Origin: Bdellovibrionales bacterium
Lineage (GTDB): Bacteria; Bdellovibrionota; Bdellovibrionia; Bdellovibrionales; UBA1609
DNA: 32,000 nucleotides
Assembly: GCA_963692945.1 (NCBI GenBank)
Contig: OY843585.1
Location: forward strand, 750,001 to 782,000
Direction: 5' to 3'
Made by a program: the position numbers and the translations under genes
Part shown: piece after piece, positions 4,436-28,128 of the stretch
Layout of the letters: the number at the start of each line of letters is the position of its first letter
How positions within the stretch are numbered: the first letter of the stretch is position 1
The notes under the pieces: model-generated
The model's input: the letters and a program-made list of their open reading frames with translations, nothing else
What the model was told of the DNA's origin: nothing
Databases searched by the model: none

Positions 4436-4512
4436 TGGTGCGCCCGAGAGGAGTTGAACCCCTAACCCCTGGATCCGAAGTCCAGTGCTCTATCCAATTG
4501 AGCTACGGACGC
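4436..4512 (-). tRNA. tRNA-Arg (anticodon UCG)
   Basis: The reverse complement reads GCGTCCGTAGCTCAATTGGATAGAGCACTGGACTTCGGATCCAGGGGTTAGGGGTTCAACTCCTCTCGGGCGCACCA. It forms a cloverleaf with a 7-bp acceptor stem. The anticodon stem is CTGGA/TCCAG around the loop CTTCGGA (anticodon TCG), with a TPsiC arm GGGGTTCAACTCC and an encoded CCA. Confidence 0.9.
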
Positions 4513-6198: not shown

Positions 6199-7143
6199 AT
6201 GTTTGAAGGTTCAGAAAAGAAAATAGAAATTATTTTTTCACCAAAGAGCTCTTCTCTTCGTTCTTTTCCTGAAAAATTTTGGCAAAATATTATAAAAGCT
6301 TGTGGAGCTTCCATCATCTCCAGTTCTAAACTTTCTTTTATTGATTCTTATATTTTGTCAGAATCTAGCTTATTCCTTTGGGATCATCGTTTAGTCCTTA
6401 TCACTTGTGGTAAAACCACACTGCCTAATTCTTTATTGAAGATTTTAAAAACGATTCCTAAAGAAGATATGGAAATTGTTTTCTATCAGAAAAAAAATGA
6501 ATTTTTTCCTTGGGCTCAGAAAAGTGATTTTTCAAAAGATGTGCGTGTCATTGAAAAAAAGATTAAAGGTTCATCTTATCAATTTGGTTCTTTGCATGAT
6601 CATCATTTTCTTTTATTTCATAATCAAGTGGATTACAACTCGGATACAAAGGACAGAACTTTAGAAATTCTTATGTATGATTCATCTTTTGTTACAAGTA
6701 CTTCCAAGGAAGTTATAGATAGTTTAAAAAAACAACTGGGAACTCTTTTACCTGGTTTTGAAATACAGGATCATTTTTTTCAACCCTCTGGTTATTCTTT
6801 AAATGCCGTTCGGGAAAAATTTTATTACACTATACATATTACTCCTGAAAAACCTTTCTTTTATATTAGTTTTGAAACAAATTTTGAATTCTCATCTTCT
6901 CATAATTTTATTGATAAACTGATTCATATTTTTAAGTCTAAAAGTTTTGACTTGATTCTTTTTAAATCCATTGGTCAGTCTGGAGAGCATTACAATAACT
7001 CTGAATTTTCAAGGAATGCTTTTTATCATCAAGTGTTAGATTGTGGTTATGAAGTTTCTTATATGAATTTTCACCGAATACAAAACACTCCAAGGCTTCC
7101 TCAGAGATATAAAAATGGAAAAGATTATCAAACAAATATTTAA
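6199..7143 (+). CDS. speD: S-adenosylmethionine decarboxylase proenzyme, eukaryote-type (class 2) architecture
   Basis: The motifs FEGSEKKIEI, YILSESSLFLW, ITCGKTT, TLEILM, QPSGYSLNA and YYTIHITPEKPFFYISFETN are colinear with eukaryotic AdoMetDC, in which LSESS is the pyruvoyl self-cleavage site. The ATG at 6199 is preferred over the TTG at 6178. Confidence 0.9.
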   Translation: MFEGSEKKIEIIFSPKSSSLRSFPEKFWQNIIKACGASIISSSKLSFIDSYILSESSLFLWDHRLVLITCGKTTLPNSLLKILKTIPKEDMEIVFYQKKNEFFPWAQKSDFSKDVRVIEKKIKGSSYQFGSLHDHHFLLFHNQVDYNSDTKDRTLEILMYDSSFVTSTSKEVIDSLKKQLGTLLPGFEIQDHFFQPSGYSLNAVREKFYYTIHITPEKPFFYISFETNFEFSSSHNFIDKLIHIFKSKSFDLILFKSIGQSGEHYNNSEFSRNAFYHQVLDCGYEVSYMNFHRIQNTPRLPQRYKNGKDYQTNI

Positions 7144-7171
7144 AAATTGCAAAAAAGAAAAGAGGTGATAA

Positions 7172-8029
7172 ATGAATGAAAAAGAATGGTTTTTTGAAAA
7201 GTATAAAGATATTTTTTCTATGGGATTTAAATTTAAGAAAACTTTATTTGATAGAAAAAGTGAATTTCAAACTGTCAAAATTCTTGAGACAGAAGGGTAT
7301 GGTCCTATGCTTATCAATGATGATATTATTATGACTACAGAAAGAGATGAATTTATTTATCATGAAATGATAATTCATGTCCCTTTGTTTACACATCCTA
7401 ACCCTGAGAATGTTCTCATTATAGGAGGGGGTGATGGAGGCTCTGCTCGGGAAGTGTTGAAACATAAAAATGTAAAAAAATGTACAATGATAGAAATTGA
7501 TTCCGTTGTTGTAGAAGCCTGTCGTGAACATTTAAAGGCCACCTCTCAAGGTTTAGATCATCCGCTTTTAGATTTGAAGTTTGAAGATGGTGCAGCTTAC
7601 ATAGCTCAACAACAAGATGCTTTTGATGTCATCATTGTAGATTCTTCAGACCCTATAGGTCCTTCTGCTGTTCTTTTTGGAGATGAGTTTTATCAAAATG
7701 TTCATAGAGCTTTAAAAAAGGAAGGGATTGTTGTTGCTCAAGGAGAATCTTCTTTTTATGAAATAGAAATTCAAAAAAGATTGTTAAAAACAGTTCATAA
7801 TCTATTTGATAAAGTTGGTTTTTACAATTATGACAATTTAACTTATTCTAGTGGTTGTTGGTCTTTCTTATTTGCTTCTAAAAAATATCATCCCATCAAG
7901 GATTTTAGGAAAGAAAATGTTAAAAAATCAGGTATTAAGTTTCGTTATTACAATGAGGAAATTCATCAGGCTTCCTTTTGTCAGCCTCAGTTTATTAAAG
8001 AGGCTTTTGAGCCCTTATGGACTTTATAG
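7172..8029 (+). CDS. speE: Spermidine synthase (aminopropyltransferase)
   Basis: It carries the motifs VLIIGGGDGG, IEID and IIVDSSDPIGP and is 285 aa long. It lies immediately downstream of speD. Confidence 0.9.
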   Translation: MNEKEWFFEKYKDIFSMGFKFKKTLFDRKSEFQTVKILETEGYGPMLINDDIIMTTERDEFIYHEMIIHVPLFTHPNPENVLIIGGGDGGSAREVLKHKNVKKCTMIEIDSVVVEACREHLKATSQGLDHPLLDLKFEDGAAYIAQQQDAFDVIIVDSSDPIGPSAVLFGDEFYQNVHRALKKEGIVVAQGESSFYEIEIQKRLLKTVHNLFDKVGFYNYDNLTYSSGCWSFLFASKKYHPIKDFRKENVKKSGIKFRYYNEEIHQASFCQPQFIKEAFEPLWTL

Positions 8030-8307
8030 AGATTGGAGGGTGGGTGAGCATTAGGAATAAGTCTTCTCATTTATCTAGACCTTGTTTAGACCTTCATGGT
8101 TTTACAACAGATGAGATTTTTGATAAATTGGACCAATTCATTATAAAAAATCAAGACAAAGAAGAGTTGTGTGTGATTGTAGGTAAGGGGAGAGGTTTAG
8201 TGAAAAAAAAGGTTATTGAATATTTGGAGTTAGGAAGATATCCTTGGAATTATGAAAAAATTTATGGTCATCTCAATGAAGGTGCTTTAATTATAGATAT
8301 GAGTTAA
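8017..8307 (+). CDS. Small Smr (MutS2-related) domain protein
   Basis: It has the LDLHG motif followed by VIVGKGRG, as in Smr domains. Its start overlaps the speE 3' end by 13 nt. Confidence 0.65.
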   Translation: MDFIEIGGWVSIRNKSSHLSRPCLDLHGFTTDEIFDKLDQFIIKNQDKEELCVIVGKGRGLVKKKVIEYLELGRYPWNYEKIYGHLNEGALIIDMS

Positions 8308-8345
8308 AATGGGAATGAAAAAAGGCTGAAAAGATAGAGGGAAAA

Positions 8346-8900
8346 ATGGACACGATTGAAAAAATAGAAGTTGAAAAATTAGAAAAATTATTTTGGCTAG
8401 ACCTTGAAATGACAGGTCTTTCTCCAAATGATGATGTTATTATTGAAGCGGCAGCGATCATCACAGATAAAAATCTTAAAGAGTTAGATGTCTATCAAAA
8501 CGTTGTCAAACAACCAGAAGAAAAACTACAAAAAATGGATGCTTGGAATCAAAAATGTCATCGTAAATCTGGACTCTACTCTCTTATCACAAAAGGGAAG
8601 GAGTTGTTCTCTGTGGAGGATGATCTTTTGCATTTTTTGGAAGCCCATTTTGGTCTTAATGAAAAAATTATTTTGGCTGGTAATTGCATTTACCAAGATA
8701 GAAATTTTATAAAAAGATATATGACTCGTTTAGATAAAAAACTTTACTATCGTATGTTGGATGTTACAGCTTGGAAAATTATTTTTGAACAAAAAGGAAT
8801 TATTTTTACAAAACAAAATAGACATAGAGCTTTAGAAGATACAAAGGAAAGTATTAGAGAATTTGCTTTCTATTTAGACAATATGAATTTTAAAAAATAA
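8346..8900 (+). CDS. orn: Oligoribonuclease (DEDDh 3'-5' exoribonuclease)
   Basis: It carries WLDLEMTGL, the GNCIYQDRNFI motif and H..ALEDT, and is 184 aa long. Confidence 0.9.
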   Translation: MDTIEKIEVEKLEKLFWLDLEMTGLSPNDDVIIEAAAIITDKNLKELDVYQNVVKQPEEKLQKMDAWNQKCHRKSGLYSLITKGKELFSVEDDLLHFLEAHFGLNEKIILAGNCIYQDRNFIKRYMTRLDKKLYYRMLDVTAWKIIFEQKGIIFTKQNRHRALEDTKESIREFAFYLDNMNFKK

Positions 8901-8906
8901 AAAAAC

Positions 8907-10187
8907 TTAATCTTGATGAAATTGAGTCGGGATTTCTTTATTGGCTTTAGCTCCTAGTTTTTTAATATTTTCTATTTTTTGTATGAGATTGCCTCGGCCA
9001 GATTCCAATTTATTGATGGCTGAGTCGTAAGAGTCACTTGCTGTTTTAATCCCTTTTTCTATTTTTGTCATATCGTCTAGAAAGCCTACAAATTTATCAT
9101 AAAGTTGTCCTGATTCTTTAGCAATTTGTTCTGCATTTTTGTTTTGTTTTTCTATTTTCCAAATAGAGGCAATGGTTCTAAGAGTAGCATACAAGGTGAT
9201 AGGGCTTACAATGACAATAGATTTTTCCCAAGCCTTGTCAAACAAGCCTTGCTTATTTTGAATCGCAAAAGAAAAAACAGGTTCAACGGGGATGAACATT
9301 AAAACAAAATCAGGGGTTTTAAACTCTTCAAGAGAAGTGGTGTATTCTTTTTGAGATAAATTATTGATATGATTTTTTAAAGAAGTAATGATTTTATTTT
9401 TATAGTCTTCCTTTTTTTCTTTATCTGTTTCTATTTCATAATTTTGATAATGTGTGAAAGAGACTTTAGAATCAATAACGATGTATTTTTTATCTGGTAG
9501 TTTAACAATAACATCAGGTCTTAATTTTTGTCCTTTTTCATTTTTTACATCTAAACCTTCAGATTGCACAAAAAACTCTTCATTTTTTCTAAGTCCTGAT
9601 TTTTCTAAAATATTTTCTAAGAGGATTTCACCCCATTGGCCTTGAGTTTTTGTATTTCCTTGTAGAGCTTGGCTAAGGCTGCGAGTTTCATCTCTCATAT
9701 TTTGATTCATGTCTTTAAAACCTTTTATAGTTTCTTGTAAGAATTTTTTACTTCCTTCAAGACTTTCAATAGATTTTTGAAAACCTGTAATATTTTCTTT
9801 AAGAGGTTTGATGAGATTTTCTATAGATTTCTCTGAATTATCTTGGTAAGTTTTTGTTGTTTCTTTGAAAATTTTTTGAGCCATAGATTCAAATTCCAGC
9901 TTTAGTTTTTGAGCCGTTTCTTCTAAAGTTTGTTTTTTATGTTCCAACTCTCTATCTTTTGTTTTAGATTCTGTTTGAAGTCGTGCATTTTCTTCTATAA
10001 GATTTCGTTCCTTTTCTTTGAATTTGTTAGTTTCAAGTTGTAAAGATTCCAAATCTTTTTTTAAAAAATCATTTTCAATTTCTGTTTTGATAGAGTTTTT
10101 ATTATTAGAAGATGATTTTTTAAAAAAGAGAGTGGCTAGGATAAGTCCTAAGAGAGCGCCAATGATAAGACCTATTAAAAAAGACAT
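8907..10187 (-). CDS. rmuC: DNA recombination protein RmuC
   Basis: It has an N-terminal TM helix and a long coiled coil. The C-terminal nuclease-like region (RPDVIVKLPDKKYIVIDSKV, FVLMFIPVEP) is typical of RmuC. Confidence 0.85.
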   Translation of the reverse strand: MSFLIGLIIGALLGLILATLFFKKSSSNNKNSIKTEIENDFLKKDLESLQLETNKFKEKERNLIEENARLQTESKTKDRELEHKKQTLEETAQKLKLEFESMAQKIFKETTKTYQDNSEKSIENLIKPLKENITGFQKSIESLEGSKKFLQETIKGFKDMNQNMRDETRSLSQALQGNTKTQGQWGEILLENILEKSGLRKNEEFFVQSEGLDVKNEKGQKLRPDVIVKLPDKKYIVIDSKVSFTHYQNYEIETDKEKKEDYKNKIITSLKNHINNLSQKEYTTSLEEFKTPDFVLMFIPVEPVFSFAIQNKQGLFDKAWEKSIVIVSPITLYATLRTIASIWKIEKQNKNAEQIAKESGQLYDKFVGFLDDMTKIEKGIKTASDSYDSAINKLESGRGNLIQKIENIKKLGAKANKEIPTQFHQD

Positions 10188-10225
10188 TTTATAAAATTAA
10201 CTTATTTTTTAGACGATAGCAATTA

Positions 10226-10326
10226 CAAAACTCTCGTCCTTCCCTTTTTATTTTTTGAGATTTTTATCGTAAGAGAGGCACTCTTCAAATCTCATTAAAA
10301 TAAGAGTAGGTAACACTAGAGTTTTG
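10226..10326 (+). repeat. Long-hairpin (LH) repeat element, copy A (partly degenerate), with terminal inverted CAAAACTCT.G / C.AGAGTTTTG
   Basis: The sequence runs CAAAACTCTCG...TATCGTAAGAGAGGCACTCTTCAAATCTCATTAAAATAAGAGTAGG...CACTAGAGTTTTG. The core and right arm match copies at 11175-11318 and 27937-28061. The left arm is decayed. Confidence 0.75.
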
Positions 10327-10373
10327 AAAAAAAATATTTACTTTCCAAGTTTTTTATTTTATTTTTAGTAGGT

Positions 10374-10841
10374 ATGAAAAAAGATGTTTTTTACATGCTT
10401 TCTCCCATAGGGAATTTAGAGATTTCTTTAGAAGGAGATAGGCTTTACTCTATTCAAAAAGATTTGCGACAAACTCGCTCTAAAAAAAGATCTCATTCCA
10501 CTGAAACCAATATTTCTAAACGAGTCAAAAAGCAATTGGAAGAGTATTTTAACTCTAAAAGAGATAAATTTTCTATTCCTTTAGCGAAAAGAGGGACAGA
10601 GTTTCAAAGGCAGGTGTGGAAAATTCTGCAAAAAATTCCCTACAATCAAACCAGAACCTATAAGGATATTTCTTTAAAACTTGGTTTTCAAACTAAAGCT
10701 CGTTCTGTGGGTCAAGCTTGTTCTAGAAATCCTTTTTTGATTGTAGTGCCTTGTCATAGAGTTCTTTCTAAACAAGGTTTAGGAGGATTTGCTTTAGGTT
10801 TAAAAGCTAAAAAAACCTTACTTGCTTTAGAAACTTCATAA
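10374..10841 (+). CDS. ogt: Methylated-DNA--protein-cysteine methyltransferase
   Basis: It has the active-site PCHRV and the helix-turn-helix region YKDIS...ARSVGQACSRNP. It is 155 aa long. Confidence 0.9.
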   Translation: MKKDVFYMLSPIGNLEISLEGDRLYSIQKDLRQTRSKKRSHSTETNISKRVKKQLEEYFNSKRDKFSIPLAKRGTEFQRQVWKILQKIPYNQTRTYKDISLKLGFQTKARSVGQACSRNPFLIVVPCHRVLSKQGLGGFALGLKAKKTLLALETS

Positions 10842-10850: not shown

Positions 10851-11198
10851 CCTCTCTCATGCGAAAACCAGCAGTTTTTCTCTAGTTCAAACATAAAACT
10901 TTATTTGCGAAAACCAGCAGTTTTTCTCTAGTTCAAACAATTTGCGAAAACCAGCAGTTTTTCTCTAAGCATACCCTCATGCGAAAACTAGTAGGTTTTC
11001 TCTAAGCATACCCTCATGCGAAAACCAGTAGGTTTTCTCTAAGCATACCCTCATGCGAAAACCAGTAGGTTTTCTCTAAGCATACCCTCATGCGAAAACC
11101 AGCAGTTTTTCTCTAGTTCAAACATAAACCTTTATTTGCGAAAACCAGCAGGTTTTCTCTAGTTCAAACAATTTGCGAAAACCAGTAGGTTTTCTCTA
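10851..11198 (+). repeat. Tandem array of 9 small-hairpin (SH) units, GCGAAAACC-AGYA-G(G/T)TTTTCTCTA, with three recurring linker types
   Basis: The 24-nt cores start at 10861, 10907, 10944, 10981, 11018, 11055, 11092, 11138 and 11175, giving spacings of 46-37-37-37-37-37-46-37 bp. The linkers are GTTCAAACATAAA(A/C)CTTTATTT, GTTCAAACAATTT and AGCATACCCTCAT. Confidence 0.9.
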
Positions 11199-11318
11199 GT
11201 TCAAATCATAAACCTATTAAGTAACTCTTATTTTAATGAGATTTGAAGAGCGTCCCTCTTGCGATGAAAAGCTCGTTAAAATAAGAGTAGGAAATACTTT
11301 AATTGAACTAGAGTTTTG
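11199..11318 (-). repeat. Long-hairpin (LH) repeat element, copy B (inverted relative to copies A and C)
   Basis: The 17-bp stem is 11224-11240 / 11272-11288, with one T:G pair. The 31-nt loop is ATTTGAAGAGCGTCCCTCTTGCGATGAAAAG. It is flanked by CTCTAGTTCAAAT and AATTGAACTAGAG and ends in GAGTTTTG, directly abutting the stop codon at 11319-11321. Confidence 0.85.
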
Positions 11319-13079
11319 TTAATGATTCATTTTCTTCATTAAAGATTTAAAATTTGTTTTAAGAAGTTTTATGTCTTCATTTTGTTTTTTATTTTGTGCT
11401 TTAAGAGATTCGTTTTCTTTTTTTAGAGAAGCCAGTTCTCTTTCTAGTTTTTTATTTGTGGATGCTAATTTTTTTTCTGTTTGAAGTTGTGTCTCTTTTA
11501 GTTTTGCCATTTCTTTTGTAATAAAATCTATAGATTTTGTAAAAGACTCTTTTATCTTTGCAAATGATTTTGTAAGAGCCGACACAGACTCTTTAAGAAA
11601 GTTTAGAGTTTTTGTTGTGGAGCCATAAAATTCTTTAAAAGTTTTTATGATAACAGGGATAAGTCCTTGGTAATTTAAACTTAAAGTCTTTTTTGGATCT
11701 GAACCTTCAGACACTAATTCGGGATACTGTTCTTGAACCTCTTGAGCAATTAAACCTATCTGTTTTGTTTGAACTCTATGTTTGTCTTTCCAGTAAAAAG
11801 TTTTAGGATTTAATTTTAAAAGAGAATGAGTTTGATTTTTTAAATCCTTAATCTTGGTTTTGAGTCGTTTATCAGAGTGATGGGTAACTCCACCGTTTAT
11901 CTTTATATCTCCAGCAATATTAACGAATTTTGTTCCTGACATATTCCCTTTAATAAGATTTCCGATATTAAGTTTATTGCTGGCATCGGTTGCTGATAAT
12001 CTCATACCTCCTCCAATCACAATATTATTGCTTCCTGTAGTAGAACCTGATGGTCCAAATTGCGCATTATCACCTAAAGCAATATTATTATTGCCTATTG
12101 TATTTCTAGATCCTGCCTCATGACCTATAAAAACATTAGATCCTCCATTGTTATCCGCACCAGCTCGTCTACCAAAAAAAGTATTGTAACCTCCGCTGAT
12201 ATTATTTAATCCCGTGTTATAACCTATAAAACTGTTGTAATTTCCTGTATTTACTTCTCCAGCTTTATAACCTACAAAAGTCCCTTCACTGCCACCTGTT
12301 CCAACTTCAAAACCAAAAGCCGTGTGCTTATTTGTACTTGCACCTGTTGTCCCACAACCCACAAGAGTTCGCCCGTCTGAGTCTACCTTGTAACATTCTG
12401 GGTCTATACCGCTTCCGCCTTCAATTTTTCCTCCAATCGCATAACATTTTTTATTATTTACAATTTCTTCCCCAACACCTCCAACAACTTTTATTTTGAT
12501 TTTAATGGGAGCTAAAACAGGAAAAATTTTTTCCTTATCCGTTCCATAATAGACGAATAAATCTAAATATCCATCTCTTGAAGTCCCTCTTACCTCACCC
12601 GCTCTAAGTTCTATTTTTTGGATGGTAAGACCATTGTATTCTTTCCAAGTTTCAAAACCAAAAGGAATATTTGTTGTGCGGTATCTAGTCTTGTGAGGGG
12701 CGGCATTTCTATAAGTTAAGACATTATTTCTATAGAGAGCATAGATGTCTTGTTTTGTGTGTCTAATATCTCTAAAGTTTAAGTTTTTTAATATTAACGA
12801 ACAAGCATTTTGGTAAATACAAGTATCTCCTACATTTTTACCTGGAGGTTTAGGACTGTTTAAGGCATTAGGGGGGCAAGTTTCTGTTTGTTCTAACAAA
12901 TGAATGATATCTTCACTCAGTTCAATAGAATTGCTTTTTTGTTGAACTTTTTTTAAAGATCTCATAAGGTTTACTTGGAATTGAGAAATTCCTAAAATAA
13001 CAATGGTTCCAATAGCAGCTGCTGATAAAACACCAATGAGGGAAAATCCAGAATTATTAAGTTTTGAATAATAAGTCAT
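11319..13079 (-). CDS. Chimeric surface fibre protein: prepilin-like N-terminus, Gly/Asn-rich tail-fibre-like repeats, S74-type intramolecular chaperone domain and a coiled-coil tail
   Basis: The N-terminus MTYYSKLNNSG/FSLIGVLSAAAIGTIVILG resembles a type IV prepilin leader plus hydrophobic helix, with Gly in place of Glu5. Residues ~215-395 carry repeats such as FVGYKAGEVNTGNYNSFIGYNTGLNN..NVFIGHEAGSRNTIGNNNIALGDNA. HH-SDKRLKTKIKDL...IGLIAQEVQEQYPELV...LNYQGLIPV matches the self-cleaving chaperone domain of phage tailspikes and fibres. Confidence 0.7.
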   Translation of the reverse strand: MTYYSKLNNSGFSLIGVLSAAAIGTIVILGISQFQVNLMRSLKKVQQKSNSIELSEDIIHLLEQTETCPPNALNSPKPPGKNVGDTCIYQNACSLILKNLNFRDIRHTKQDIYALYRNNVLTYRNAAPHKTRYRTTNIPFGFETWKEYNGLTIQKIELRAGEVRGTSRDGYLDLFVYYGTDKEKIFPVLAPIKIKIKVVGGVGEEIVNNKKCYAIGGKIEGGSGIDPECYKVDSDGRTLVGCGTTGASTNKHTAFGFEVGTGGSEGTFVGYKAGEVNTGNYNSFIGYNTGLNNISGGYNTFFGRRAGADNNGGSNVFIGHEAGSRNTIGNNNIALGDNAQFGPSGSTTGSNNIVIGGGMRLSATDASNKLNIGNLIKGNMSGTKFVNIAGDIKINGGVTHHSDKRLKTKIKDLKNQTHSLLKLNPKTFYWKDKHRVQTKQIGLIAQEVQEQYPELVSEGSDPKKTLSLNYQGLIPVIIKTFKEFYGSTTKTLNFLKESVSALTKSFAKIKESFTKSIDFITKEMAKLKETQLQTEKKLASTNKKLERELASLKKENESLKAQNKKQNEDIKLLKTNFKSLMKKMNH

Positions 13080-13250: not shown

Positions 13251-13976
13251 TTATTGAGATTCAGTTAAGGTTGCACCAATAATACCACAAGCGATTCTTT
13301 CTCCAGAATTTCCTGTTGGTTGAGTTTTTAAATCATCTTCTTTTGCATGTACAATAACAGAACGACCTAAAAATTTTCTAAAGTGTCCTGGTAGAACTTT
13401 ATCATAGAGAGCTTCACCTTTTGAATCAGAAGATAGATTTCCTAAATCTCCTGCATGCTTTTCTGGACTAAGAGGGCCTCCATGTAGAGAAGGGGTTCTC
13501 TTTTTATTGAAAAAACTTTTTTTATGTCTATGAGGATGAACTATTAAATGCCCTCCTGCTTTTAAGGCTTTATCTGAACAATCTCCAAATTCATGAACAT
13601 GAAATCCAAACTTTTGATTCGCTTTCAAATTTGTGATTTTTGCTCTTACTCTTACTTTTTTATGATCTGCTTTTTCAAAAATCACAAAACCTTTTGGGCC
13701 TCCAGTATTCACTGGTGTTACATAGGCTTTTCCAGAAAGACCATTTGAGCCACAACAAGATTTTTTAGAATGAGAGCAAGACTTTTTGGAATGAGAGCAA
13801 GATTTTTTAGAATGAGAACAAGACTTTTTAGAATGAGAACAAGATTTTTTAGAATGCTTATGATGTTGTTTGTGATCGGAGTGTTTTTGAGTAGAATGCT
13901 TGTAGGTAGAGTAACAACTCACAAGAAAGGAAAGAGAAAATAATAAACTGGCAATAAAGAAAGACTTTTGAAACAT
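13251..13976 (-). CDS. sodC: Cu,Zn superoxide dismutase lipoprotein with an N-terminal His/Cys-rich tandem-repeat extension
   Basis: It has lipobox LVSC and the SodC motifs GFHVHEFGDCS, GGH, HAGDLGN, VIVHAKEDD and GNSGERIACGII. The N-terminus carries KHSTQKHSDHKQHHKH followed by five SKKSCSH repeats. Confidence 0.9.
   Translation of the reverse strand: MFQKSFFIASLLFSLSFLVSCYSTYKHSTQKHSDHKQHHKHSKKSCSHSKKSCSHSKKSCSHSKKSCSHSKKSCCGSNGLSGKAYVTPVNTGGPKGFVIFEKADHKKVRVRAKITNLKANQKFGFHVHEFGDCSDKALKAGGHLIVHPHRHKKSFFNKKRTPSLHGGPLSPEKHAGDLGNLSSDSKGEALYDKVLPGHFRKFLGRSVIVHAKEDDLKTQPTGNSGERIACGIIGATLTESQ
13755..13856 (-). repeat. In-frame 21-bp tandem repeat, about 5 copies, encoding (SKKSCSH)n inside sodC
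   Basis: The plus strand reads ACAAGA(T/C)TTTTT(A/G)GAATGAGA(G/A) reiterated with a 21-bp period. Confidence 0.85.
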
Positions 13977-14109
13977 TTGTAAACTCCTTTTTGTTTAAAA
14001 AATAACTTAGTTTCAATTTATAAAGGTATTGGTTTAAAAATTCAAGATATTTCTAAAATTTAAAAAAGGCTTGTATTGAAAACTTAATTTACATATCTTG
14101 ATATTTACG

Positions 14110-15045
14110 ATGAACATTTTAAACTCTTATTTTTTAGACTTTTTAAAGGTCACAGAACAGAGTGCTTTGGCTTGTTATCCTCTTATAGGAAAGGGAGATG
14201 CTCAGGCTGCCGATCAAGCGGCTGTGGATGCAATGAGATTGTATTTTCAAGAACTGCAAATGGATGTTCAAATTGTTATAGGTGAGGGGGAAAGAGATAA
14301 AGCCCCTCGTCTTTATACAGGAGAACATCTTGGAGATAAAAATTCAGAGATTAAAATAGATGTGGCTGTTGATCCTTTAGAAGGAACAACTCTTTGTGCT
14401 GAAGGAAGAGAGGGTTCCTTATCGGTTATGGCTGTTTCTTTGAGAGGAGGTCTTTTTAAGGCTCCTGATGTCTATATGAAAAAAATAGCTTGTGGTCCAA
14501 AAGCGAAAGGATCTATCAACTTAAAGGCTTCCGTTGTAGATAATATCTTATCCGTTTCAAAGGCTTTAAATAAAAAACCAGAGGATTTAGTTATTGGCGT
14601 TTTAAAAAGAGAACGGCATCAAGACTTAATTCAGTCTATTAGGCAAACAAAAGCTTGTATTCGTCTTGTTGGAGATGGGGATGTTGCACTGGCTTTAGAA
14701 ACAACCCTTCCAAATTCATCTTTAGATCTATTGATTGGAACAGGTGGTGCTCCAGAAGGAGTTTTAGCAGCTGCGGCTTTAAAATGCCTAGGAGGTGATT
14801 TTCAAGGTCAGTTTCTTTATAAAGATGAGAAAGAGAAACAAAGAGCAGATCAATGTGGTGTAAAAGATTTACATAAAATTTGGACTATGGAAGAATTGGT
14901 TTCTGGAAATGTTCTTTTTTATGCGACGGGAGTCACTAAAGGTTCACTTTTGGATGGAATTCATAAAAAAGGAAATCTTTGGGAAAGTCATTCTCTTATT
15001 TTGAGTAACCAGGTGAGAAGAGATATAAAAAATTATCATATATAA
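14110..15045 (+). CDS. glpX: Class II fructose-1,6-bisphosphatase (GlpX type)
   Basis: The N-terminus LDFLKVTEQSALACYPLIGKGDAQAADQAAVDAMR and the motifs VDPLEGT, LVGDGDV and GTGGAPEGV fit GlpX. The ATG at 14110 is preferred over the TTG at 14098. Confidence 0.9.
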   Translation: MNILNSYFLDFLKVTEQSALACYPLIGKGDAQAADQAAVDAMRLYFQELQMDVQIVIGEGERDKAPRLYTGEHLGDKNSEIKIDVAVDPLEGTTLCAEGREGSLSVMAVSLRGGLFKAPDVYMKKIACGPKAKGSINLKASVVDNILSVSKALNKKPEDLVIGVLKRERHQDLIQSIRQTKACIRLVGDGDVALALETTLPNSSLDLLIGTGGAPEGVLAAAALKCLGGDFQGQFLYKDEKEKQRADQCGVKDLHKIWTMEELVSGNVLFYATGVTKGSLLDGIHKKGNLWESHSLILSNQVRRDIKNYHI

Positions 15046-15138: not shown

Positions 15139-15528
15139 ATGAAATTAAAAAAATATATAATTTATAGCCTTTTCTTATCTTGTTTATTTTCAGGGTTTTT
15201 AGGTGTTGCTCAAACAACTGAAGAAGATGAACTGGATTTTTTATTTGGTCTCTCGGGAGAAGAAATCACCTGTGATAATATAACAGATGTTTTTATAGAG
15301 TATAATAACACTATAAAATTACTTACGGATGTTTTTAGCAAATCTCTTTCTAATATGTCTGTTTTTATGAATGATGTTCATAAAAAGGGTCAGATAAAAA
15401 AATCAGATTGGGCTGCCAAAAAAAGTCAAATTAAAGAAGCGGAAATTATTATGGATGAAAACGCATATCAGATATTACAAAAAGGTGAAGATATTCAGTC
15501 CATTTTACAAGAATGTTTAAACCCATAA
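15139..15528 (+). CDS. Hypothetical secreted protein (signal peptide, acidic, helical)
   Basis: This is a 129-aa ORF with an N-terminal hydrophobic signal-like segment, MKLKKYIIYSLFLSCLFSGFLGVAQ. I do not recognise any family. Confidence 0.5.
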   Translation: MKLKKYIIYSLFLSCLFSGFLGVAQTTEEDELDFLFGLSGEEITCDNITDVFIEYNNTIKLLTDVFSKSLSNMSVFMNDVHKKGQIKKSDWAAKKSQIKEAEIIMDENAYQILQKGEDIQSILQECLNP

Positions 15529-16596: not shown

Positions 16597-18579
16597 ATGA
16601 AAAAAATTCAAAAACCAAAAATCAATAACCAGCAAAAGACTTTTTTGTTTTGGATTGCTTTTCTTGTTTTTGGTTTAATCTTTTTCCAATTTTATGAACA
16701 GTCAAAGAAGGATAAAGTTAAAGACTTTAACTATCCTAAGTTTCTTCAATCTCTTGAAGCGAAACAGGTTGTAAAAGATAGTGTTATTTTTAATCGGACA
16801 GCTCAAGAAATTAAAGGAGACCTCAATGAAGCAGGTGCAAAAGTTTTTGGAGGTGTTCATTTTGTTATTGAAGGAAATGTGGATGATAAAGGTTTTGAAA
16901 TTTTAAGATCTTATGGAATCACTCCTTCCTATTCTAATAAAGATAATAATTTTTGGACAACAGTTTTAATCAGTTGGTTTCCTATTCTTTTATTATTTGG
17001 AGTTTTTATATTTTTTATTCGTCAAATTCAAATGGGAAGTGGAAAAGCTTTTTCTTTTGGAAAAAGCCGTGCTCGTTTAGTGATGGATAAAGGAAGAGCA
17101 ACTTTTAAAGATGTTGCAGGTATTGAAGAAGCCAAAGAAGAACTTAAAGAAATTGTAGAGTTTTTAAAAAGTCCAAAGCGATTTACAAAGTTAGGAGGGC
17201 AAATTCCTAAAGGTGTTTTGCTTATTGGATCACCAGGAACAGGTAAAACTTTATTAGCCAGAGCTGTGGCAGGGGAAGCCAAAGTTCCTTTCTTTACTAT
17301 TTCAGGTTCTGATTTTGTAGAAATGTTTGTGGGAGTTGGTGCTTCTCGTGTAAGAGATCTTTTCGTTCAAGGGAGAAAAAATGCTCCTTGTTTGATTTTC
17401 ATAGATGAAATAGATGCTGTTGGTCGTCAAAGGGGTGCTGGTTTAGGGGGAGGACATGATGAAAGAGAACAAACTTTAAATCAATTGCTTGTTGAGATGG
17501 ATGGTTTTGATAGTAAAGAAGGTATTATTTTAATTGCGGCTACAAATCGTCCAGATGTTTTAGATCCAGCTCTTTTGCGTCCTGGTCGTTTTGATAGAAG
17601 AGTGATGGTTAATCTTCCTGATTTAAAAGGTCGGTTGGCTATTTTAAAGGTACATAGTAGGAAAACACCTTTTTCATCTGGAGTGGATTTAGAAAAAATA
17701 GCTAGAGGAACACCAGGTTTTTCAGGGGCGGATTTGAAAAATCTTATTAATGAAGCCAGTTTGATGGCAGCTTTTAAAAATAAACTCAAAATTGAAATGG
17801 AAGATTTAGAAAGAGCTCGTGATAAGGTCATGATGGGGGCTGAAAGAAAAACTTTTATTATGAGTGATAAGGATAAAAAAATCACAGCCTATCATGAAGC
17901 AGGCCATGCTATTGTGGGTATGAGTTTGTCTTTACTGGATCCTGTTCATAAAGTTACAATTGTTCCTAGAGGAATGGCTTTGGGTGTGACTCAAACACTT
18001 CCTAAGGAAGATTTACTAAATATGAGTAAGAAAAAAGCACAAAACACTTTGTCCTTTCTTTTTGGTGGTCGTGTTGCTGAAGAGGAGATTTTTAAAGATT
18101 ATACTAGTGGTGCTAGCAATGATATTGAAAAAGCAACCTCTTTAGCTCGTAGTATGGTTTGTGAATGGGGAATGAGTGAAAAACTAGGTCCTTTGTTTTT
18201 AGGAAAACAAGAGGGTAATGTTTTTCTAGGTAGAGATCATAATAAAACTCGTAATTACTCTGAAGAAAGTGCTAAAGAGATTGATACTGAAATTCACTTT
18301 TTTATTGATAAAGCTTATAAGAAAGCGAAACAAATTATACAAGAAAAAATGGACTATCTTCATGTGATGGCTCAATCTTTATTAGATTTTGAGACTATTG
18401 ATTCAGAAGAAGTAAGTATGATTATGAAAGGTAAAAAACTTTCTGATTTAAAAACTTATAGAAAGCAGTTATCAGATAAAATAAAAGAAGAAAGAGAGTC
18501 TCATAAAAAAGAAGAAGCAGCTAAAAAGAAAAAAACCAATGATAATTCTGTAGGATCTACAATTCCTTCTCCTGTTTAA
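16597..18579 (+). CDS. ftsH: ATP-dependent zinc metalloprotease FtsH
   Basis: It has two TM helices, Walker A GSPGTGKT, Walker B IFIDEID, the second region of homology, and the zinc site HEAGHA. Confidence 0.97.
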
Positions 18580-18590
18580 GAAAGGTAGCT

Positions 18591-19949
18591 ATGGTTTCTA
18601 GGAGTAAAAAACTTTTTGGAACAGATGGTGTTCGTGGTTTAGCCAATCAATACCCTATAACACCAGATATAGCTTTAAAAATAGGTCAAGCTATTGGAAT
18701 TTTATTAAAACGAAAATACAAAGATAAAAAACACACGGTCTTAATAGGTAAGGACACCCGTATTTCTGGTTATATGTTGGAACAGGCTCTTGCAAGTGGA
18801 TTAAATTCTATGGGAGTTTGGGTCCAATTAACGGGTCCACTACCTACCCCTGGAATAGGATTTTTGGCACAAAATATGCGTGTTTCTGCTGGTGTAGTTA
18901 TTTCTGCCTCTCATAATTTTTACTATGATAATGGAATAAAAATATTTTTTGCTGATGGATTTAAAATATCTTCAGAAGATGAAAAAGAAATTGAGAGACT
19001 TGTTTTTTCAGGAGATATGGAGGGAGATAGTCAATCTATTGGTAGGACTTGTCGTATTGTTGATGCTGCTGGGAGATATATCGTATTTGCTAAAAGGAGT
19101 TTTCCTCAAAACATAGATTTAAGGTCTATGAAAATAGTTTTAGATTGTGCTAATGGTGCTGCTTATAAAGTGGCTCCATTTATTTTTGAAGAGATCGGAG
19201 CAGAAGTGATTCCTATAGGTAATAAACCCAATGGATTTAATATCAATCAAGGTGTAGGAGCTTTGTATCCTGAAAAAATAGCAGAGACTGTTTTAAAACA
19301 TAAAGCAGATGTAGGTATTAGTTTAGATGGAGATGGTGATAGAATCATTATGTCTGATGAAAAAGGACGAATTTTAAATGGAGATCATATTTTAGGAATC
19401 TGTGCGATACACTTAAAACATCAAAATCTTTTATCCCATAATAAAATTGTTGCAACTCATTTATCTAATACTGGTTTAGAAGAAACTTTAAAATCTTATG
19501 GAATAGATATTTTGAGATCTGATATTGGAGATCGTAATGTTGTAAAAATTATGAAAGAAGAAAATATTACTTTAGGAGGGGAGTCTTCAGGTCATATTAT
19601 TTTTCTCAACCAAAGTACGACAGGAGATGCTTGTATAGCGGCTTTGAATGTTTTAGCAGCTATGAAAGTTCAAAATAAAAAATTAAGTGAGTTTAGAGAT
19701 AGTATAAAAGAAAAACCTCAGATTCATTTAAAAACAACTATCAAGCATAAAAAGAAATTAGAATCTTTACCTGGATTTTGTGACTTAATTTCTTCTTCTA
19801 AAGAAAAACTAAAAGAAGGTGGAAGAGTACTTGTTCGTTTTTCAGGGACAGAGCCTATTGTTAGAGTTTTTGTGGAAGGAAACACTTTAAATGTTGTTGA
19901 GGAAGAGGCAAAGCGAATCATTCATTTTTTGGAGAAAAATCTATCTTAG
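18591..19949 (+). CDS. glmM: Phosphoglucosamine mutase
   Basis: It carries FGTDGVRG, the active-site ISASHN, the metal site DGDGDR, and the GESSGH and RFSGTEP motifs. Confidence 0.95.
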   Translation: MVSRSKKLFGTDGVRGLANQYPITPDIALKIGQAIGILLKRKYKDKKHTVLIGKDTRISGYMLEQALASGLNSMGVWVQLTGPLPTPGIGFLAQNMRVSAGVVISASHNFYYDNGIKIFFADGFKISSEDEKEIERLVFSGDMEGDSQSIGRTCRIVDAAGRYIVFAKRSFPQNIDLRSMKIVLDCANGAAYKVAPFIFEEIGAEVIPIGNKPNGFNINQGVGALYPEKIAETVLKHKADVGISLDGDGDRIIMSDEKGRILNGDHILGICAIHLKHQNLLSHNKIVATHLSNTGLEETLKSYGIDILRSDIGDRNVVKIMKEENITLGGESSGHIIFLNQSTTGDACIAALNVLAAMKVQNKKLSEFRDSIKEKPQIHLKTTIKHKKKLESLPGFCDLISSSKEKLKEGGRVLVRFSGTEPIVRVFVEGNTLNVVEEEAKRIIHFLEKNLS

Positions 19950-19980: not shown

Positions 19981-20421
19981 ATGGACTATCAAAAACGAAA
20001 GATTCATAATTTAGAAGAGCTTAAAATTTTTTCTAAAGATATTGTTCAAGAGATCAAAAAACCTCAACTGCTTTTGATGCAAGGCCCTTTAGGTGTTGGA
20101 AAAACACAATGTGTTCATTTTATAAATGAATGTTTTGGTGTTTCTAAAAAAGACATTTGCTCTCCTAGTTTCTCCATTATAAATACCTATAAAAGTCCAA
20201 AATCCATTATATCTCATATTGATTTTTTTCGTCTTCAAGATAAGCAGGATTTAGAATCTACAGGCATTTGGGATGTTTTTCTTGATTCCCAAATTGTTTT
20301 TATAGAGTGGGCTGATCTTTTTCAAGTGCAATGGCCAGATCATTGGAATAAATTGTTTTTATTTTTTGAGTTCTCCAAAGAGGAAGAAGATGTGAGATGG
20401 ATTAAGTGGGGAAGTTGTTAA
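19981..20421 (+). CDS. tsaE: tRNA threonylcarbamoyladenosine (t6A) biosynthesis ATPase TsaE
   Basis: It has the P-loop GPLGVGKT, SPSFSIINTY, H.D.FRL and IEWA motifs and is 146 aa long. Its stop shares the tetranucleotide TTAA with the convergent gene's stop. Confidence 0.85.
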   Translation: MDYQKRKIHNLEELKIFSKDIVQEIKKPQLLLMQGPLGVGKTQCVHFINECFGVSKKDICSPSFSIINTYKSPKSIISHIDFFRLQDKQDLESTGIWDVFLDSQIVFIEWADLFQVQWPDHWNKLFLFFEFSKEEEDVRWIKWGSC

Positions 20422-21989
20422 GCCGCTAATTTTTTAGTGTTTGATTTATTAAAGTGATCTAAAACTTGCTGTTCTATTTTTTTAACGGATTGTTTATCTA
20501 AGTTGGTCATAGAAATTCCTATAAAAACAAACTTTAATTTATTCATTTCATCTTGAATAGGAATAGCTGTTACATGTTTTGGATATTGAGACCAGCCGAT
20601 ACTATTAAAGAATTTTTGATTAACCTCTGTATCTACAACAAAACCATGATAGGAATGTCCCTTTCCTACAATTTTAAAAATAGAAAAATCGTTTAAGTTG
20701 GCTGCTGTTTTTGTTTCCATTTCAGGTTTTATTTCAATACGACCTGACCAATTTTGAAAGAGTAAATCGTTATTTCTACTTTTCAAAATAAGAGATCCTA
20801 TAAATTGAGATTTGACTTGGTTAAAAAAGTCATCATGATTTTCTTTGTATTTAATAGTAAAATTGGTTTTTGTTAAATTTGTAATTTCTGGGTTTGTTTT
20901 TGTAATTTCTGGGTTTGTTTTTTCAGAAGAGAGAGTCACTTTAGGAGGTGCTTCTTTTTGAATAGGCTTTGGAGTTATTTTTGTGATTTCTAGGTTTGTT
21001 TTTGTAATTTCTGGGTTTATTTTTTCAGAAGAGAGAGTCACTTTAGGAGGTGCTTCTTTTTGAATAGGCTTTGGGGTTAAATTTGTAATTTCTAGGTTTG
21101 TTTTTGTAATTTCTGGGTTTGTTTTTTCAGAAGAGAGAGTCGCTTTAGGAGGTGCTTCTTTTTGAATAGGCTTTGGGCTTACTTTTATAATTTCTGAATC
21201 TGTTTTTTCAGAAATTGTTTTTGGATTTAAAATGATTTCTTTTTGTTTAGATTCATTTTTTAGTAAAGGGTTTTTTATTATAGAAGTGATGTGATCTAAG
21301 AAATTTTTAGATTTTGTAGATTTGATGGTATTTGTTTTTTTTGTACTACTCATTTGAGAGTACTCCGCTTTTTTGATAAAATCGTCTTCTTCTGAAGGTG
21401 TATCTATTGTTATACCTTTCATATAGAAAGGCGTAGATTCTCTTGTTTGATGACTTCTTTCAGGATCGGTGCTTTCATCTGGAGAAAAAGAGATACGTTC
21501 TTCCTCTATTTCAGGTAAAGAAGTGTCATTATTTAAGGAAGTAGGTGCTTTTATAGGGATTTCTTTCTCTGTAGATTTTTGAAAGTCTTTTATAGATTTC
21601 CAATGCATACGGAGAGCTAAATCTGTTACAAGCACAAAACGATGCTTAAAAGACCAAGACTTATGGTTTTTAGGTTTTTCTAGACAAGCTATAAAAACAG
21701 TATCTTCCCATATATAAATAGGTGCTATTTCTTCATTCCATCTGTGTAGATTTTTTACTTTACTCCACTGGCTTTGATTCATTAAATTTTGTTCAAAGAA
21801 AGTATTTTGGACAATGGGTATATTGTAAAAATTGGAAGCCCAGTCAAAGTACTTCTTTCTATCAATGATTTTTTGAGTTAAAGACCAAAGTAGAAAACTT
21901 TGGTTATTATTTGATTGATTCCAATCTTCTAGGTTTTTTTCAGAAACATTTAAATCAATTGTCCAAGCATAATCTTTAATAGGATTCAT
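20418..21989 (-). CDS. Hypothetical protein with a central 3 x 34-aa Pro/Lys/Glu/Thr-rich tandem repeat; the N-terminus is faintly T2SSE_N/MshEN-like
   Basis: This is a long ORF of 523 aa. The repeat PKPIQKEAPPKVTLSSEKTNPEITKTNLEITNLT occurs three times. The globular N- and C-terminal domains are not confidently recognised. Confidence 0.6.
   Translation of the reverse strand: MNPIKDYAWTIDLNVSEKNLEDWNQSNNNQSFLLWSLTQKIIDRKKYFDWASNFYNIPIVQNTFFEQNLMNQSQWSKVKNLHRWNEEIAPIYIWEDTVFIACLEKPKNHKSWSFKHRFVLVTDLALRMHWKSIKDFQKSTEKEIPIKAPTSLNNDTSLPEIEEERISFSPDESTDPERSHQTRESTPFYMKGITIDTPSEEDDFIKKAEYSQMSSTKKTNTIKSTKSKNFLDHITSIIKNPLLKNESKQKEIILNPKTISEKTDSEIIKVSPKPIQKEAPPKATLSSEKTNPEITKTNLEITNLTPKPIQKEAPPKVTLSSEKINPEITKTNLEITKITPKPIQKEAPPKVTLSSEKTNPEITKTNPEITNLTKTNFTIKYKENHDDFFNQVKSQFIGSLILKSRNNDLLFQNWSGRIEIKPEMETKTAANLNDFSIFKIVGKGHSYHGFVVDTEVNQKFFNSIGWSQYPKHVTAIPIQDEMNKLKFVFIGISMTNLDKQSVKKIEQQVLDHFNKSNTKKLAA
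20871..21178 (-). repeat. 102-bp in-frame tandem repeat, 3 copies, inside the 523-aa ORF, with an internal (N[PL]EITKT) sub-repeat
   Basis: The marker TCAGAAGAGAGAGTC(A/G)CTTTAGGAGGTGCTTCTTTTTGAATAGGCTTTGG recurs with its C at 20924, 21026 and 21128. The period is exactly 102 bp. Confidence 0.9.
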
Positions 21990-27210: not shown

Positions 27211-27894
27211 TTATAAAGTGTTTGTAGCTAAAATAGCAAACCATTGTGAGCCGTTTATTAAATGATTAGCTATAAAAAAAAGTGGTTTTGATAGATAATG
27301 AAGAGCTCCTGAAAATACGAGAAAAATCAAAATAAAAGCACTATAATGTTGTTTGCTTTCTAAAAACATGTTCCAGCGAATAGGTAAAAAACGAGCTAAT
27401 ACTTTTGCACCATCTAAGGGGTGAAGAGGAAGAAGATTAAAGAAACAAAGAAGTAGATTGACAAAAATAAAAACCTCTATCATTTCAAAAACGGGAGCTT
27501 TTAAGGTCAAACCTTTGAGCTTGATGATATAGGCAATTCCTAGAAAGAAAGAGCCAATAAAAGCAAGAATGAAATTAGACAGAGGTCCAGCGAAGGCAAT
27601 CCAAAATAAGTCTTTTTTGGGATTTTTTAAGACTCTCTCGTCAACAGGGACGGGTTTTGCCCAGCCAAAAAAAAGAGGAGAATTAATAAGTAGAAAAAAC
27701 AAAGGTAAAATGACAGTTCCTATTAAATCTATATGTGCTACAGGGTTTAAAGTGAGACGACCATTATAATAAGCCGTTAAGTCTCCCTTTCTTTTTGCTG
27801 TCCATCCATGAGCCCATTCGTGAACACAAAGGGAGAAAAGAAGTGGAAGGTAAAATAAAAATATCTTATATATAAATTCACTGAAATTCATCAT
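27211..27894 (-). CDS. M50 family (site-2 protease-like) membrane metalloprotease
   Basis: It has HEWAH (HExxH) in the first TM region and NLLPLHPLDG (NxxPxxxLDG) in a later TM region. It is polytopic and 227 aa long. Confidence 0.8.
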   Translation of the reverse strand: MMNFSEFIYKIFLFYLPLLFSLCVHEWAHGWTAKRKGDLTAYYNGRLTLNPVAHIDLIGTVILPLFFLLINSPLFFGWAKPVPVDERVLKNPKKDLFWIAFAGPLSNFILAFIGSFFLGIAYIIKLKGLTLKAPVFEMIEVFIFVNLLLCFFNLLPLHPLDGAKVLARFLPIRWNMFLESKQHYSAFILIFLVFSGALHYLSKPLFFIANHLINGSQWFAILATNTL

Positions 27895-27936
27895 GATAAA
27901 GGATTTTTACCAGTGAATAAGGTTTTAAGCAAATAA

Positions 27937-28061: not shown

Positions 28062-28128
28062 AAACCTTCTGGTTTTTGCACCTGACTTATAGAACACTGG
28101 CAAAAAACAGAGTTTTTCTCTAGCTCAC
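28049..28128. repeat. Two SH units in head-to-head orientation between LH copies C and D
   Basis: GTTTGAACTAGAGAAAACCTTCTGGTTTTTGCA is a reversed unit. A 17-bp centre follows, and then TGGCAAAAAACAGAGTTTTTCTCTAGCTCAC, a degenerate forward unit. Confidence 0.7.

Follow-up and report, generated by a model that had tools for sequence, protein, structure and literature searches.

The window analysed here is a 32,000-nucleotide (32-kb) stretch of the genome of an uncultivated member of the Bdellovibrionota with a low GC content (32%). In this window, a tandem array of short repeats lies between two convergent genes, ogt (10374-10841) and a gene for a 586-aa protein (11319-13079). The 586-aa protein possesses a prepilin-like N-terminus and a peptidase S74 domain, and its gene is called the fibre gene below. 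The other window ORFs that were scanned are housekeeping genes (alternative complex III, spermidine synthesis, orn, rmuC, sodC, glpX, tilS, ftsH, tsaE, mnmA, scpAB and others) or unannotated. When 28 ORFs of the window were compared with Pfam, no transposase, integrase, Par, Rep, Cas or toxin gene was detected, and there was no RAYT among them. The first-pass annotation had placed the array directly after the ogt stop, from position 10851. As listed below, the first unit begins at 10860, which is 18 nt past the stop codon (10841). The nine direct copies described in the same annotation were all recovered (nine starts between 10860 and 11174), and the spacings calculated from these starts were identical to those given there, 46-37-37-37-37-37-46-37 bp. 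The features of the array are as follows.

10860-11198, plus strand: tandem array of nine 25-nt units (core-pattern scan, TRF and linker reading)
10856-10967, plus strand: left copy of the higher-order block (unit-L-unit-S-unit), 112 bp (repeat search)
10968-11090, plus strand: P-linker run in the centre of the array (four P linkers, u4-u6)
11087-11198, plus strand: right copy of the higher-order block, 112 bp (repeat search)

The nine units are direct copies of the consensus TGCGAAAACC-AGYA-GKTTTTCTCTA and start at 10860, 10906, 10943, 10980, 11017, 11054, 11091, 11137 and 11174. The order of units and linkers is u1-L-u2-S-u3-P-u4-P-u5-P-u6-P-u7-L'-u8-S-u9. The array is real and non-random, far above chance: a relaxed core pattern gave 11 matches in the 32-kb window, as compared with 0.05 expected, and none of 100 shuffles equalled this number. 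TRF assigned a score of 284 to a period of 37 (7.7 copies) and one of 349 to a higher-order period of 111. The nested block that had been proposed for both ends of the array is present, and its two 112-bp copies (10856-10967 and 11087-11198) are 96% identical. The view of the locus as a mosaic intergenic repeat with higher-order structure is borne out by this block and by the mosaic of linkers.

Three types of linker were found, as had been claimed. The L linker (GTTCAAACATAAA[A/C]CTTTATT) is 21 nt in length, and the S linker (GTTCAAACAATT) and P linker (AGCATACCCTCA) are 12 nt each. However, the long type comes in two variants (TAAAACTTT and TAAACCTTT). The P linker has no relation to L or S. 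The proposed co-segregation of core variants with linker type is partial, because AGCAGT was found with L, S and P, and the S linker follows both AGCAGT and AGCAGG. A 7-bp stem, GAAAACC/GGTTTTC, had been described for the unit. This stem (perfect or with wobble pairs) forms in five of the nine units, u4, u5, u6, u8 and u9, with predicted energies of -5.7 to -7.9 kcal/mol. In contrast, the four AGCAGT units have a C.T mismatch and the 7-bp stem is not formed. Because this mismatch is present in four of nine units, the palindrome is not maintained in the array. In addition, the P linker and the TGC of the following unit can form a 4-bp mini-hairpin with an ACCCUC loop.

The palindrome had been regarded as a free-standing unit. 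Our analysis shows instead that it is the 5' module of a dispersed composite element of about 146 bp. Alignment and nhmmer revealed four copies of this element, about 115-146 bp in length, in the 32-kb window. They are given below, where LH denotes a long hairpin.

11174-11319, plus strand: E1, with unit 11174-11198, linker 11199-11223, LH arms 11224-11244 and 11268-11288, and 3' box 11303-11319
27936-28080, minus strand: E2, full copy of the E1 subfamily (nhmmer E = 7e-36)
28100-28229, plus strand: E3, diverged copy, with degenerate unit 28100-28125 and LH arms 28138-28159 and 28184-28205
10226-10345, minus strand: E4, old decaying copy in the rmuC-ogt spacer, with LH arms 10244-10263 and 10287-10306

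The modules of the composite element are the 25-nt unit, a linker starting with GTTCAAA, the 65-nt LH and the 3' box. The LH possesses arms of 21-22 bp and a conserved apex, GARGAGYRYCYCTCTYRCGAYRAAAA, which is GAAGAGCGTCCCTCTTGCGATGAAAA in E1. The 3' box is TTGAAC[T/G]AGAGTTTTGT in the family, TTGAACTAGAGTTTTGT in E1 and TTGAACGAGAGTTTTGT in E3. An nhmmer profile of E1-E4 detected four full elements in the window with E values from 2e-36 to 2e-26. The elements contain nine, one, one (degenerate) and zero copies of the unit module. The region from 11174 to 11299 (126 nt) in E1 shares 95% identity with 27955-28080 in E2, read as the reverse complement, at a distance of 16.7 kb. Near-identical E1 and E2 are young copies and E4 is an old, decayed one: E4 has no intact unit and four mismatches in the LH stem, and its 5' inverted repeat CAAAACTCTAG (10316-10326) and 3' box GGACGAGAGTTTTG (10226-10239) can be recognized. 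The pair of units that had been noticed at 28 kb is real. One copy is at 28056-28080 (minus strand, two mismatches) and a degenerate copy is at 28100-28125 (plus strand); E2 and E3, to which they belong, are arranged head-to-head. The 3' end of E1 adjoins the stop codon of the fibre gene.

We then describe the folding potential of the element. An 11-bp inverted repeat, CTCTAGTTCAA/TTGAACTAGAG, constitutes an outer stem enclosing E1 and E2, and its counterpart in E4 is CAAAACTCTAG/CGAGAGTTTTG. The outermost ends of the elements have a weak inverted-repeat character. E1 is predicted to fold as one long hairpin (-43.2 kcal/mol, z = -6.4), and the opposite strand folds about equally well. Pairing extends to 90.9% of cells in the LH stem as compared with 44-53% in slid controls, and six of 22 pairs are altered on both sides. 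The LH stem of E3 possesses compensatory changes, and two covarying pairs are located directly below the UCCCUCU apex (G77-C89 and C78-G88 in the RNAalifold register). An inner apex hairpin, AAGAG/CTCTT, was also considered and was dropped because the changes in E3 are not compensatory in that register. The covariation, observed in four sequences of which two are near-identical, shows that hairpin potential has been kept across subfamilies and not that the RNA is functional. The dinucleotide TA is found 3' of all four elements. It is also present at both outer ends of the E3 and E2 pair, and the individual 5' ends are not preceded by TA. These positions suggest a TA target-site duplication as a candidate feature of the element.

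The element is AT-rich and non-coding. Its sole ORF (28 aa) runs across the E1 hairpin, and a frameshift disrupts it in E2. The apex substitutions show no preference for third codon positions. No ORF reaching 40 aa lies in the interval from the array to the convergent gene; only ORFs of 24-28 aa are present, and these are not conserved between copies. Coding sequence was therefore rejected as an identity of the region. The motif CCCTCATGCGA is present at each junction of a P linker with a unit, in the left flank of u1 (CTCTCATGCGA) and in every LH apex (CCCTCTTGCGA). This motif gave 17 matches as compared with 5.5 expected, and the exact matches are all within these elements. The form common to apex and junctions is CCCTCWTGCGA.

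The last unit of the right 112-bp block (11174-11198) doubles as the 5' module of E1. The other eight units of the array match the E1-E4 profile over its first 26-33 positions only. The linkers are also related to the element. The L linker corresponds to the 21 nt or so with which a full element continues after its unit (L' is GTTCAAACATAAACCTTTATT, and E1 has GTTCAAATCATAAACCTATTAAG), and the S linker is L minus the nine nucleotides TAAAACTTT and matches the start of the E2 spacer. Because of these profile matches and this derivation of the linkers, the array is a stack of 5'-terminal fragments of the element that ends in the complete E1.

The closest relatives are uncultivated Bdellovibrionales/Oligoflexia MAGs, the proteins of which are 59-79% identical to those of the window. 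Gene order is highly conserved between the window and these relatives. The spacer between the M50 protease gene and the acyl-CoA dehydrogenase gene (acdH) is 377 bp in the window, whereas the relatives L008 and L009 have 117 and 108 bp, respectively. L011 has a different gene next to M50, and its spacer on the upstream side of M50 measures 101 bp. When the window was aligned with the relatives, the flanks of the spacer matched as far as the two outward-facing 3' boxes. The flank on the acdH side is a conserved palindrome (ATGACTTT...AAAGTCAAT) with the -35 hexamer TTGACT, and the flank on the M50 side is TTGCTT-17-TAAAAA. Because the flanks align up to the 3' boxes, E3 and E2 together are an insertion of about 280 bp between conserved promoters. 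Thus, L008 and L009 possess empty sites, and insertion polymorphism, which is a MITE criterion, was observed.

The spacer 3' of ogt also differs among relatives. It is 28 bp in L015, in which ogt adjoins sodC and the 586-aa gene is missing, and 55 bp in L007. In L016, a homologue of the fibre gene is present and the spacer is 157 bp; it contains an unrelated 57-bp repeat in two copies, which has the form A-tract/hairpin/T-tract. L016 possesses at least five other intergenic arrays. For example, the array at 3005-3415 of L016 consists of a 29-nt core with or without a 20-nt linker (29/49 bp), which is a mosaic logic like that of the ogt array. That L016 has built intergenic arrays from unrelated sequences points to a mutational tendency rather than to a conserved function. 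Diverged orthologues of E4 were identified by eye and regular expression upstream of rmuC in L015 (AAAACTCTAG...TTGAACTAGGGTTTTG, -25.5 kcal/mol) and in L007. Because these orthologues exist, the family is older than these species, and old copies persist and decay. Searches of about 150 kb from six relatives with regular expressions, nhmmer and a covariance model did not find the unit or the LH. In 185,579 species genomes and metagenome contigs, the unit pattern gave single matches only, and those inspected (in a Bacteriovorax genome and two viral contigs) are all in coding sequence. The LH apex pattern had no match in viral contigs.

Three of the four elements have the 3' box directly ahead of a -35-like TTG hexamer, at a distance of 1-4 nt, and the hexamer is conserved even in relatives that lack the element. 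The three hexamers are those of rmuC (TTGCTA-17-TAATTT), M50 (TTGCTT-17-TAAAAA) and acdH (TTGACT). Three nucleotides separate the end of the E2 box from the downstream -35-like TTGCTT of M50, and the E3 box adjoins the TTGACT of acdH. In L015, the orthologous box TTGAAC (TTGAACTAGGGTTTTG) is 17 nt upstream of the -10 of rmuC. A promoter-related role of the 3' box is conceivable. The proximity of box and hexamer may also merely reflect where short divergent spacers tolerate insertions, and the shared orientation of the boxes toward the -35 is not significant with three cases only.

Several established identities were considered for the array and were rejected. It is not a CRISPR: in place of unique spacers of about 25-40 nt it has spacers of 12 or 21 nt in three recurring kinds, Cas domains are absent from the window, and Rfam gave no significant CRISPR-DR match. 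A ToxI-like type III antitoxin was rejected since a downstream toxin ORF is absent and the flanking genes match no PADLOC defence model. In the Rfam search, the sole match in the window above the gathering threshold was a tRNA (4439-4512). Nothing in the region of the array reached that threshold, and a relaxed search of this region gave generic hairpin (miRNA) matches far under it; a known RNA family was rejected on this basis. A consensus scan for sigma-70 promoters and intrinsic terminators found neither in the array or the elements. GC skew remains positive over the array and dips only slightly and locally, at 12-14 kb. Because the skew stays positive, the array does not mark an origin or terminus.

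We consider that the repeat is probably a lineage-specific mosaic repeat of MITE/BOX-like type, the 5' module of which has been amplified in tandem at ogt. The element would be mobile but non-autonomous, in the manner of MITEs, or a modular A-Bn-C repeat like BOX, and E1 would be the resident copy at the ogt locus whose 5' module was multiplied. The anatomy of the element, its dispersal, its insertion relative to the relatives and the derivation of the linkers are shown by the results above. By contrast with these, transposition, which would need an enzyme encoded at another place in the genome, and slippage are inferred. The array could have arisen in four steps. The unit and the first 21 nt of the spacer (46 bp) would have been duplicated; a 9-nt deletion would have given the 37-bp form; a second 37-bp form with the P linker would have arisen; and the 112-bp block would then have been duplicated. 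Replication slippage or unequal recombination between direct repeats is the likely mechanism, and a nested pattern of 46-bp and 37-bp repeats, P run and 112-bp block would be expected from successive events of this type. Since the array appears to be the multiplied end-piece of a scattered, hairpin-rich element, it would be junk or selfish DNA of an ordinary bacterial kind rather than a site dedicated to protein binding. Effects on the host, such as stabilization or termination of the ogt and fibre-gene transcripts or donation of a -35 box, would be incidental.

Other explanations of the array have to be weighed against this one. The array and LH might serve ogt, and the fibre gene on the opposite strand, as a structured 3' UTR that acts as a bidirectional terminator or a barrier to 3'-exonucleases as REP/BIME do in E. 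coli. This is unlikely. The location between convergent genes, the lack of a canonical terminator at ogt, the five hairpin-forming units, the end of the E1 hairpin (...CUAGAG followed by UUUUGUU) and the A-tract/hairpin/T-tract repeat in the same spacer of L016 are consistent with such a role, whereas E2, E3 and E4 are located between divergent promoters, where there is nothing to terminate. Moreover, no site in the array or E1 passed the terminator scan, four of nine hairpins are broken, and a 28-bp spacer suffices in L015. The first-pass annotation had raised another possibility, namely that the phased palindromes recruit a dimeric DNA-binding protein, as in a sopC-like centromere, an iteron or a nucleoid-protein loading site. 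We found neither par, rep nor dnaA in the window, and no partition, replication or HTH gene beside the array, and the genes of the window are housekeeping. GC skew has no inflection or switch at the array and no plasmid or phage similarity was detected; origin, terminus, iteron and centromere were rejected on these grounds. Furthermore, the same mutation breaks four of the nine palindromes, the unit belongs to a dispersed element, and both unit and array are missing from the orthologous spacer of relatives. Although the phasing of the nine copies, the 7-bp inverted repeat in every copy and a 74-bp double period that would be near seven helical turns favour such a site, we regard recruitment of a protein as very unlikely.

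It is highly improbable that the array encodes a regulatory or sponge RNA, the C-rich loops of which pair with GAGGG Shine-Dalgarno-like sites or titrate a protein. No promoter was detected by the scan, no Rfam family matched, relatives lack conservation, and copies of the element are found in either orientation and also ahead of promoters, a position in which it would remain untranscribed. The recurrence of CCCUC in predicted loops (ACCCUC four times and UCCCUCU at the LH apex), which together with the covarying pairs below the apex would favour such an RNA, is equally explained by internal duplication in the element. The readings as protein array, structured 3' UTR and sponge RNA are thus not supported by the evidence gathered. 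That the relatives are prone to intergenic tandem arrays of unrelated sequence would also fit a purely local minisatellite, born in the ogt spacer and unlinked to any dispersed element. The first-pass annotation had considered this outcome for a unit unique to the locus. However, the unit recurs at 28 kb inside the same composite element, the 126-nt copy at 27955-28080 contradicts a local birth, and the L and S linkers are derived from the internal spacer of the element; a local origin is hardly credible. Finally, there is a slight chance that the repeat family has been domesticated. Through its invariant UCCCUCU apex and the four ACCCUC loops of the P-type repeats, the array near ogt might act as a multivalent RNA (anti-Shine-Dalgarno or protein sponge) or as a multivalent DNA landing pad for the mobilizing enzyme, and the TTGAAC box, located against -35 hexamers, would rewire promoters. 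If this were true, the family would be a regulatory toolkit in a reduced Bdellovibrionota genome. The CCCTCWTGCGA motif and the covarying apex with its UCCCUCU loop could reflect a function other than mobility. The C-rich apex and shared motif could be a recognition site of the mobilizing enzyme or a trace of internal duplication; a functional RNA loop is less likely.

If the repeat is a mobile, modular element with a tandemly amplified end, as we propose, several consequences follow. To our knowledge, small repeats of Bdellovibrionota have not been catalogued, and this is the first description of a lineage-specific mosaic repeat family in an uncultivated, low-GC genome of this phylum. The locus illustrates how a minisatellite with nested higher-order structure can arise by amplification of an element's terminal module. 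Practically, the array could be used as a strain-typing (VNTR) locus. It also gives a warning for annotation pipelines, since it resembles a CRISPR, an iteron array and a ToxI array and is none of them. If the element prefers sites just upstream of -35 hexamers, or provides the -35 itself, as the orthologous box seems to do in L015, it would add a modest case of promoters being shaped by repeats in compact genomes.

We compared the array and the element with known systems. The sopC site of plasmid F consists of 12 repeats of 43 bp that all contain a 7-bp inverted repeat, and ToxI type III antitoxin arrays consist of 5.5 repeats of 36 nt. The ogt array shares with them phased direct repeats of about 36-43 bp with a short inverted repeat. 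In contrast to these systems, no sopAB, parAB or toxN-like gene is adjacent, the locus is chromosomal with housekeeping genes, and the units, which are degenerate, belong to a dispersed element.

The organization had been called BIME-like. [quoted passage not shown] The repeats described here share with the REP/BIME systems of enterobacteria and pseudomonads extragenic palindromes in mosaic clusters with few linker types and a location at gene 3' ends between convergent genes, and the units of E2 and E3 form a head-to-head doublet that is REPIN-like. However, all nine units of the array are direct, whereas REPs alternate in BIMEs (PMC2817692), and because all units have the same orientation the array is not BIME-like. 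In addition, the stem is short (7 bp) and AT-rich instead of G+C-rich, and the unit forms only one part of a larger element. There is no GTAG or GTGG at the head of the palindrome; GTAG is found only inside the loop and 3' arm, in five of nine units.

The hallmarks of MITEs are terminal inverted repeats, AT-richness, a hairpin fold and insertion polymorphism. Like the Correia elements of Neisseria and Nezha of cyanobacteria, the element described here is small and AT-rich, possesses terminal inverted repeats and folds as a long hairpin. Dispersed copies of mixed age, presence or absence among relatives and TA beside the ends are also shared. Correia elements are known to create promoters (PMC3049150), and a terminal box resembling a -35 hexamer is shared with them; in L015, this box (TTGAACTAGGGTTTTG) precedes the -10 of rmuC. 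The element differs from these MITEs in an extra, amplifiable small hairpin at its 5' end. The flanking TA is here a candidate target-site duplication, and within the 32-kb window there is no transposase and no cognate IS with matching ends.

BOX elements have boxA and boxC on either side of a tandem boxB array. The number of boxB copies differs from locus to locus and from strain to strain, and this amplified module folds on its own (PMC3049150). The element is likewise a composite of intergenic modules, one of which is in a variable tandem array (here 0, 1, 1 and 9 copies), as in the BOX elements of Streptococcus pneumoniae and S. suis. It is also AT-rich, highly base-paired and non-coding, and its amplified module folds largely on its own. 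As in BOX, the length of the array is expected to vary by slippage or unequal crossover (PMC3049150). The amplified module is internal in BOX but terminal (5') here, and three alternative linkers and a nested 112-bp block are present in addition. Sequence and organism are unrelated, so that the likeness is one of organization and not of membership, and homology is unlikely given the unrelated phylum. Of the systems compared, BOX elements and MITEs appear to be closest in organization, and on this comparison we propose that the element is of the BOX/MITE kind and represents a family not previously described.

The 11-nt motif CCCTCWTGCGA is present at the apex of every long hairpin in the window, and it also occurs at the junctions 5′ of units u4-u7 of the tandem array. 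The junction 5′ of u1 carries the same motif with one mismatch. The sites are as follows.

10854-10864, junction 5′ of u1
10974-11095, junctions 5′ of u4-u7 (four sites)
11254-11264, hairpin of the repeat-element copy E1
27990-28000, hairpin of copy E2
28169-28179, hairpin of copy E3
10267-10277, hairpin of copy E4

This common motif suggests that the element's two hairpin modules are homologous to each other. A short reading frame also crosses one of the hairpins.

11236-11322, + strand, 28-aa ORF across the long hairpin of E1

The encoded peptide would be MRFEERPSCDEKLVKIRVGNTLIELEFC. Because a frameshift interrupts the E2 copy after residue 20 and the E3 copy does not have an ATG, this ORF is probably not a gene.

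Intergenic arrays were also found in L016, a related genome (RmuC identity, 76%) represented by a 1x long-read contig in which many genes are frameshifted. Six spacers within 10 kb contain tandem arrays.

L016 2990-3450, intergenic array
L016 4401-4555, intergenic array
L016 5009-5202, intergenic array
L016 6156-6268, intergenic array
L016 6417-6550, intergenic array
L016 9284-9398, intergenic array

One of them consists of a 29-nt core with or without an optional 20-nt linker (periods of 29 and 49), and all six are unrelated in sequence to the unit of the window. At L016 14010-18593, a segment of ~1.3-1.4 kb is present in tandem triplicate (copies 85-96% identical). This region contains a (TA)22 tract (15458-15501), and long inverted repeats lie at its two ends (14010-14135 and 18470-18593; 85-92% complementary).

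Tandem repeats are found within coding regions as well. The genes concerned in the window, together with a gene whose L016 homologue is repetitive, are listed below.

11319-13079, - strand, 586-aa protein whose N-terminus is prepilin-like and whose C-terminal part is a coiled coil, with a peptidase S74 (endosialidase chaperone) domain
13251-13976, - strand, sodC ORF (Cu/Zn superoxide dismutase)
20418-21989, - strand, 523-aa ORF, no Pfam domain

The 586-aa protein gene has no counterpart at the syntenic position in the relatives L006 and L015. In its L016 homologue (6596-9234; about 49% identity), a 51-bp coding repeat occurs 22 times. The gene resembles one for a variable fibre or adhesin. In sodC, an in-frame repeat (21 bp x 4.9; 13754-13856) encodes five HSKKSCS heptapeptides in the N-terminal region, and this His/Cys-rich tract possibly binds metal. 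The product is 241 aa long, versus 173 aa in L006. The 523-aa ORF contains a 102-bp repeat (3.2 copies, 93% matches; 20872-21195) with 21-bp repeats nested inside. Because the syntenic ORFs of relatives encode 421-487 aa, the number of repeats is probably variable.

Upstream of the acyl-CoA dehydrogenase gene, the palindrome (A)TGACTTT-N(10-12)-AAAGTCA(T) (28229-28262) overlaps the -35. It is conserved in the window and three relatives (L008, L009 and L011; about 9895-9930) and is likely an operator for a fatty-acid-degradation regulator. The region upstream of rmuC was compared in L006, L007, L015 and L016. The -10-like hexamers of rmuC (TAATTT, within 10187-10225) and the M50 protease gene (TAAAAA, within 27894-27935) are conserved. 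In both genes the ATG lies merely 6-9 nt downstream of the hexamer, with no Shine-Dalgarno sequence. This arrangement suggests that leaderless or near-leaderless mRNAs are used in this clade.

The rmuC product itself matched a defence-related model.

8907-10187, - strand, RmuC gene (PADLOC model RTasRmuC, E = 1e-114)

RTasRmuC denotes RmuC associated with defence reverse transcriptases. Because there is no reverse transcriptase near rmuC in the window and the orn-rmuC pairing is kept in all relatives examined, the protein looks like the housekeeping RmuC.
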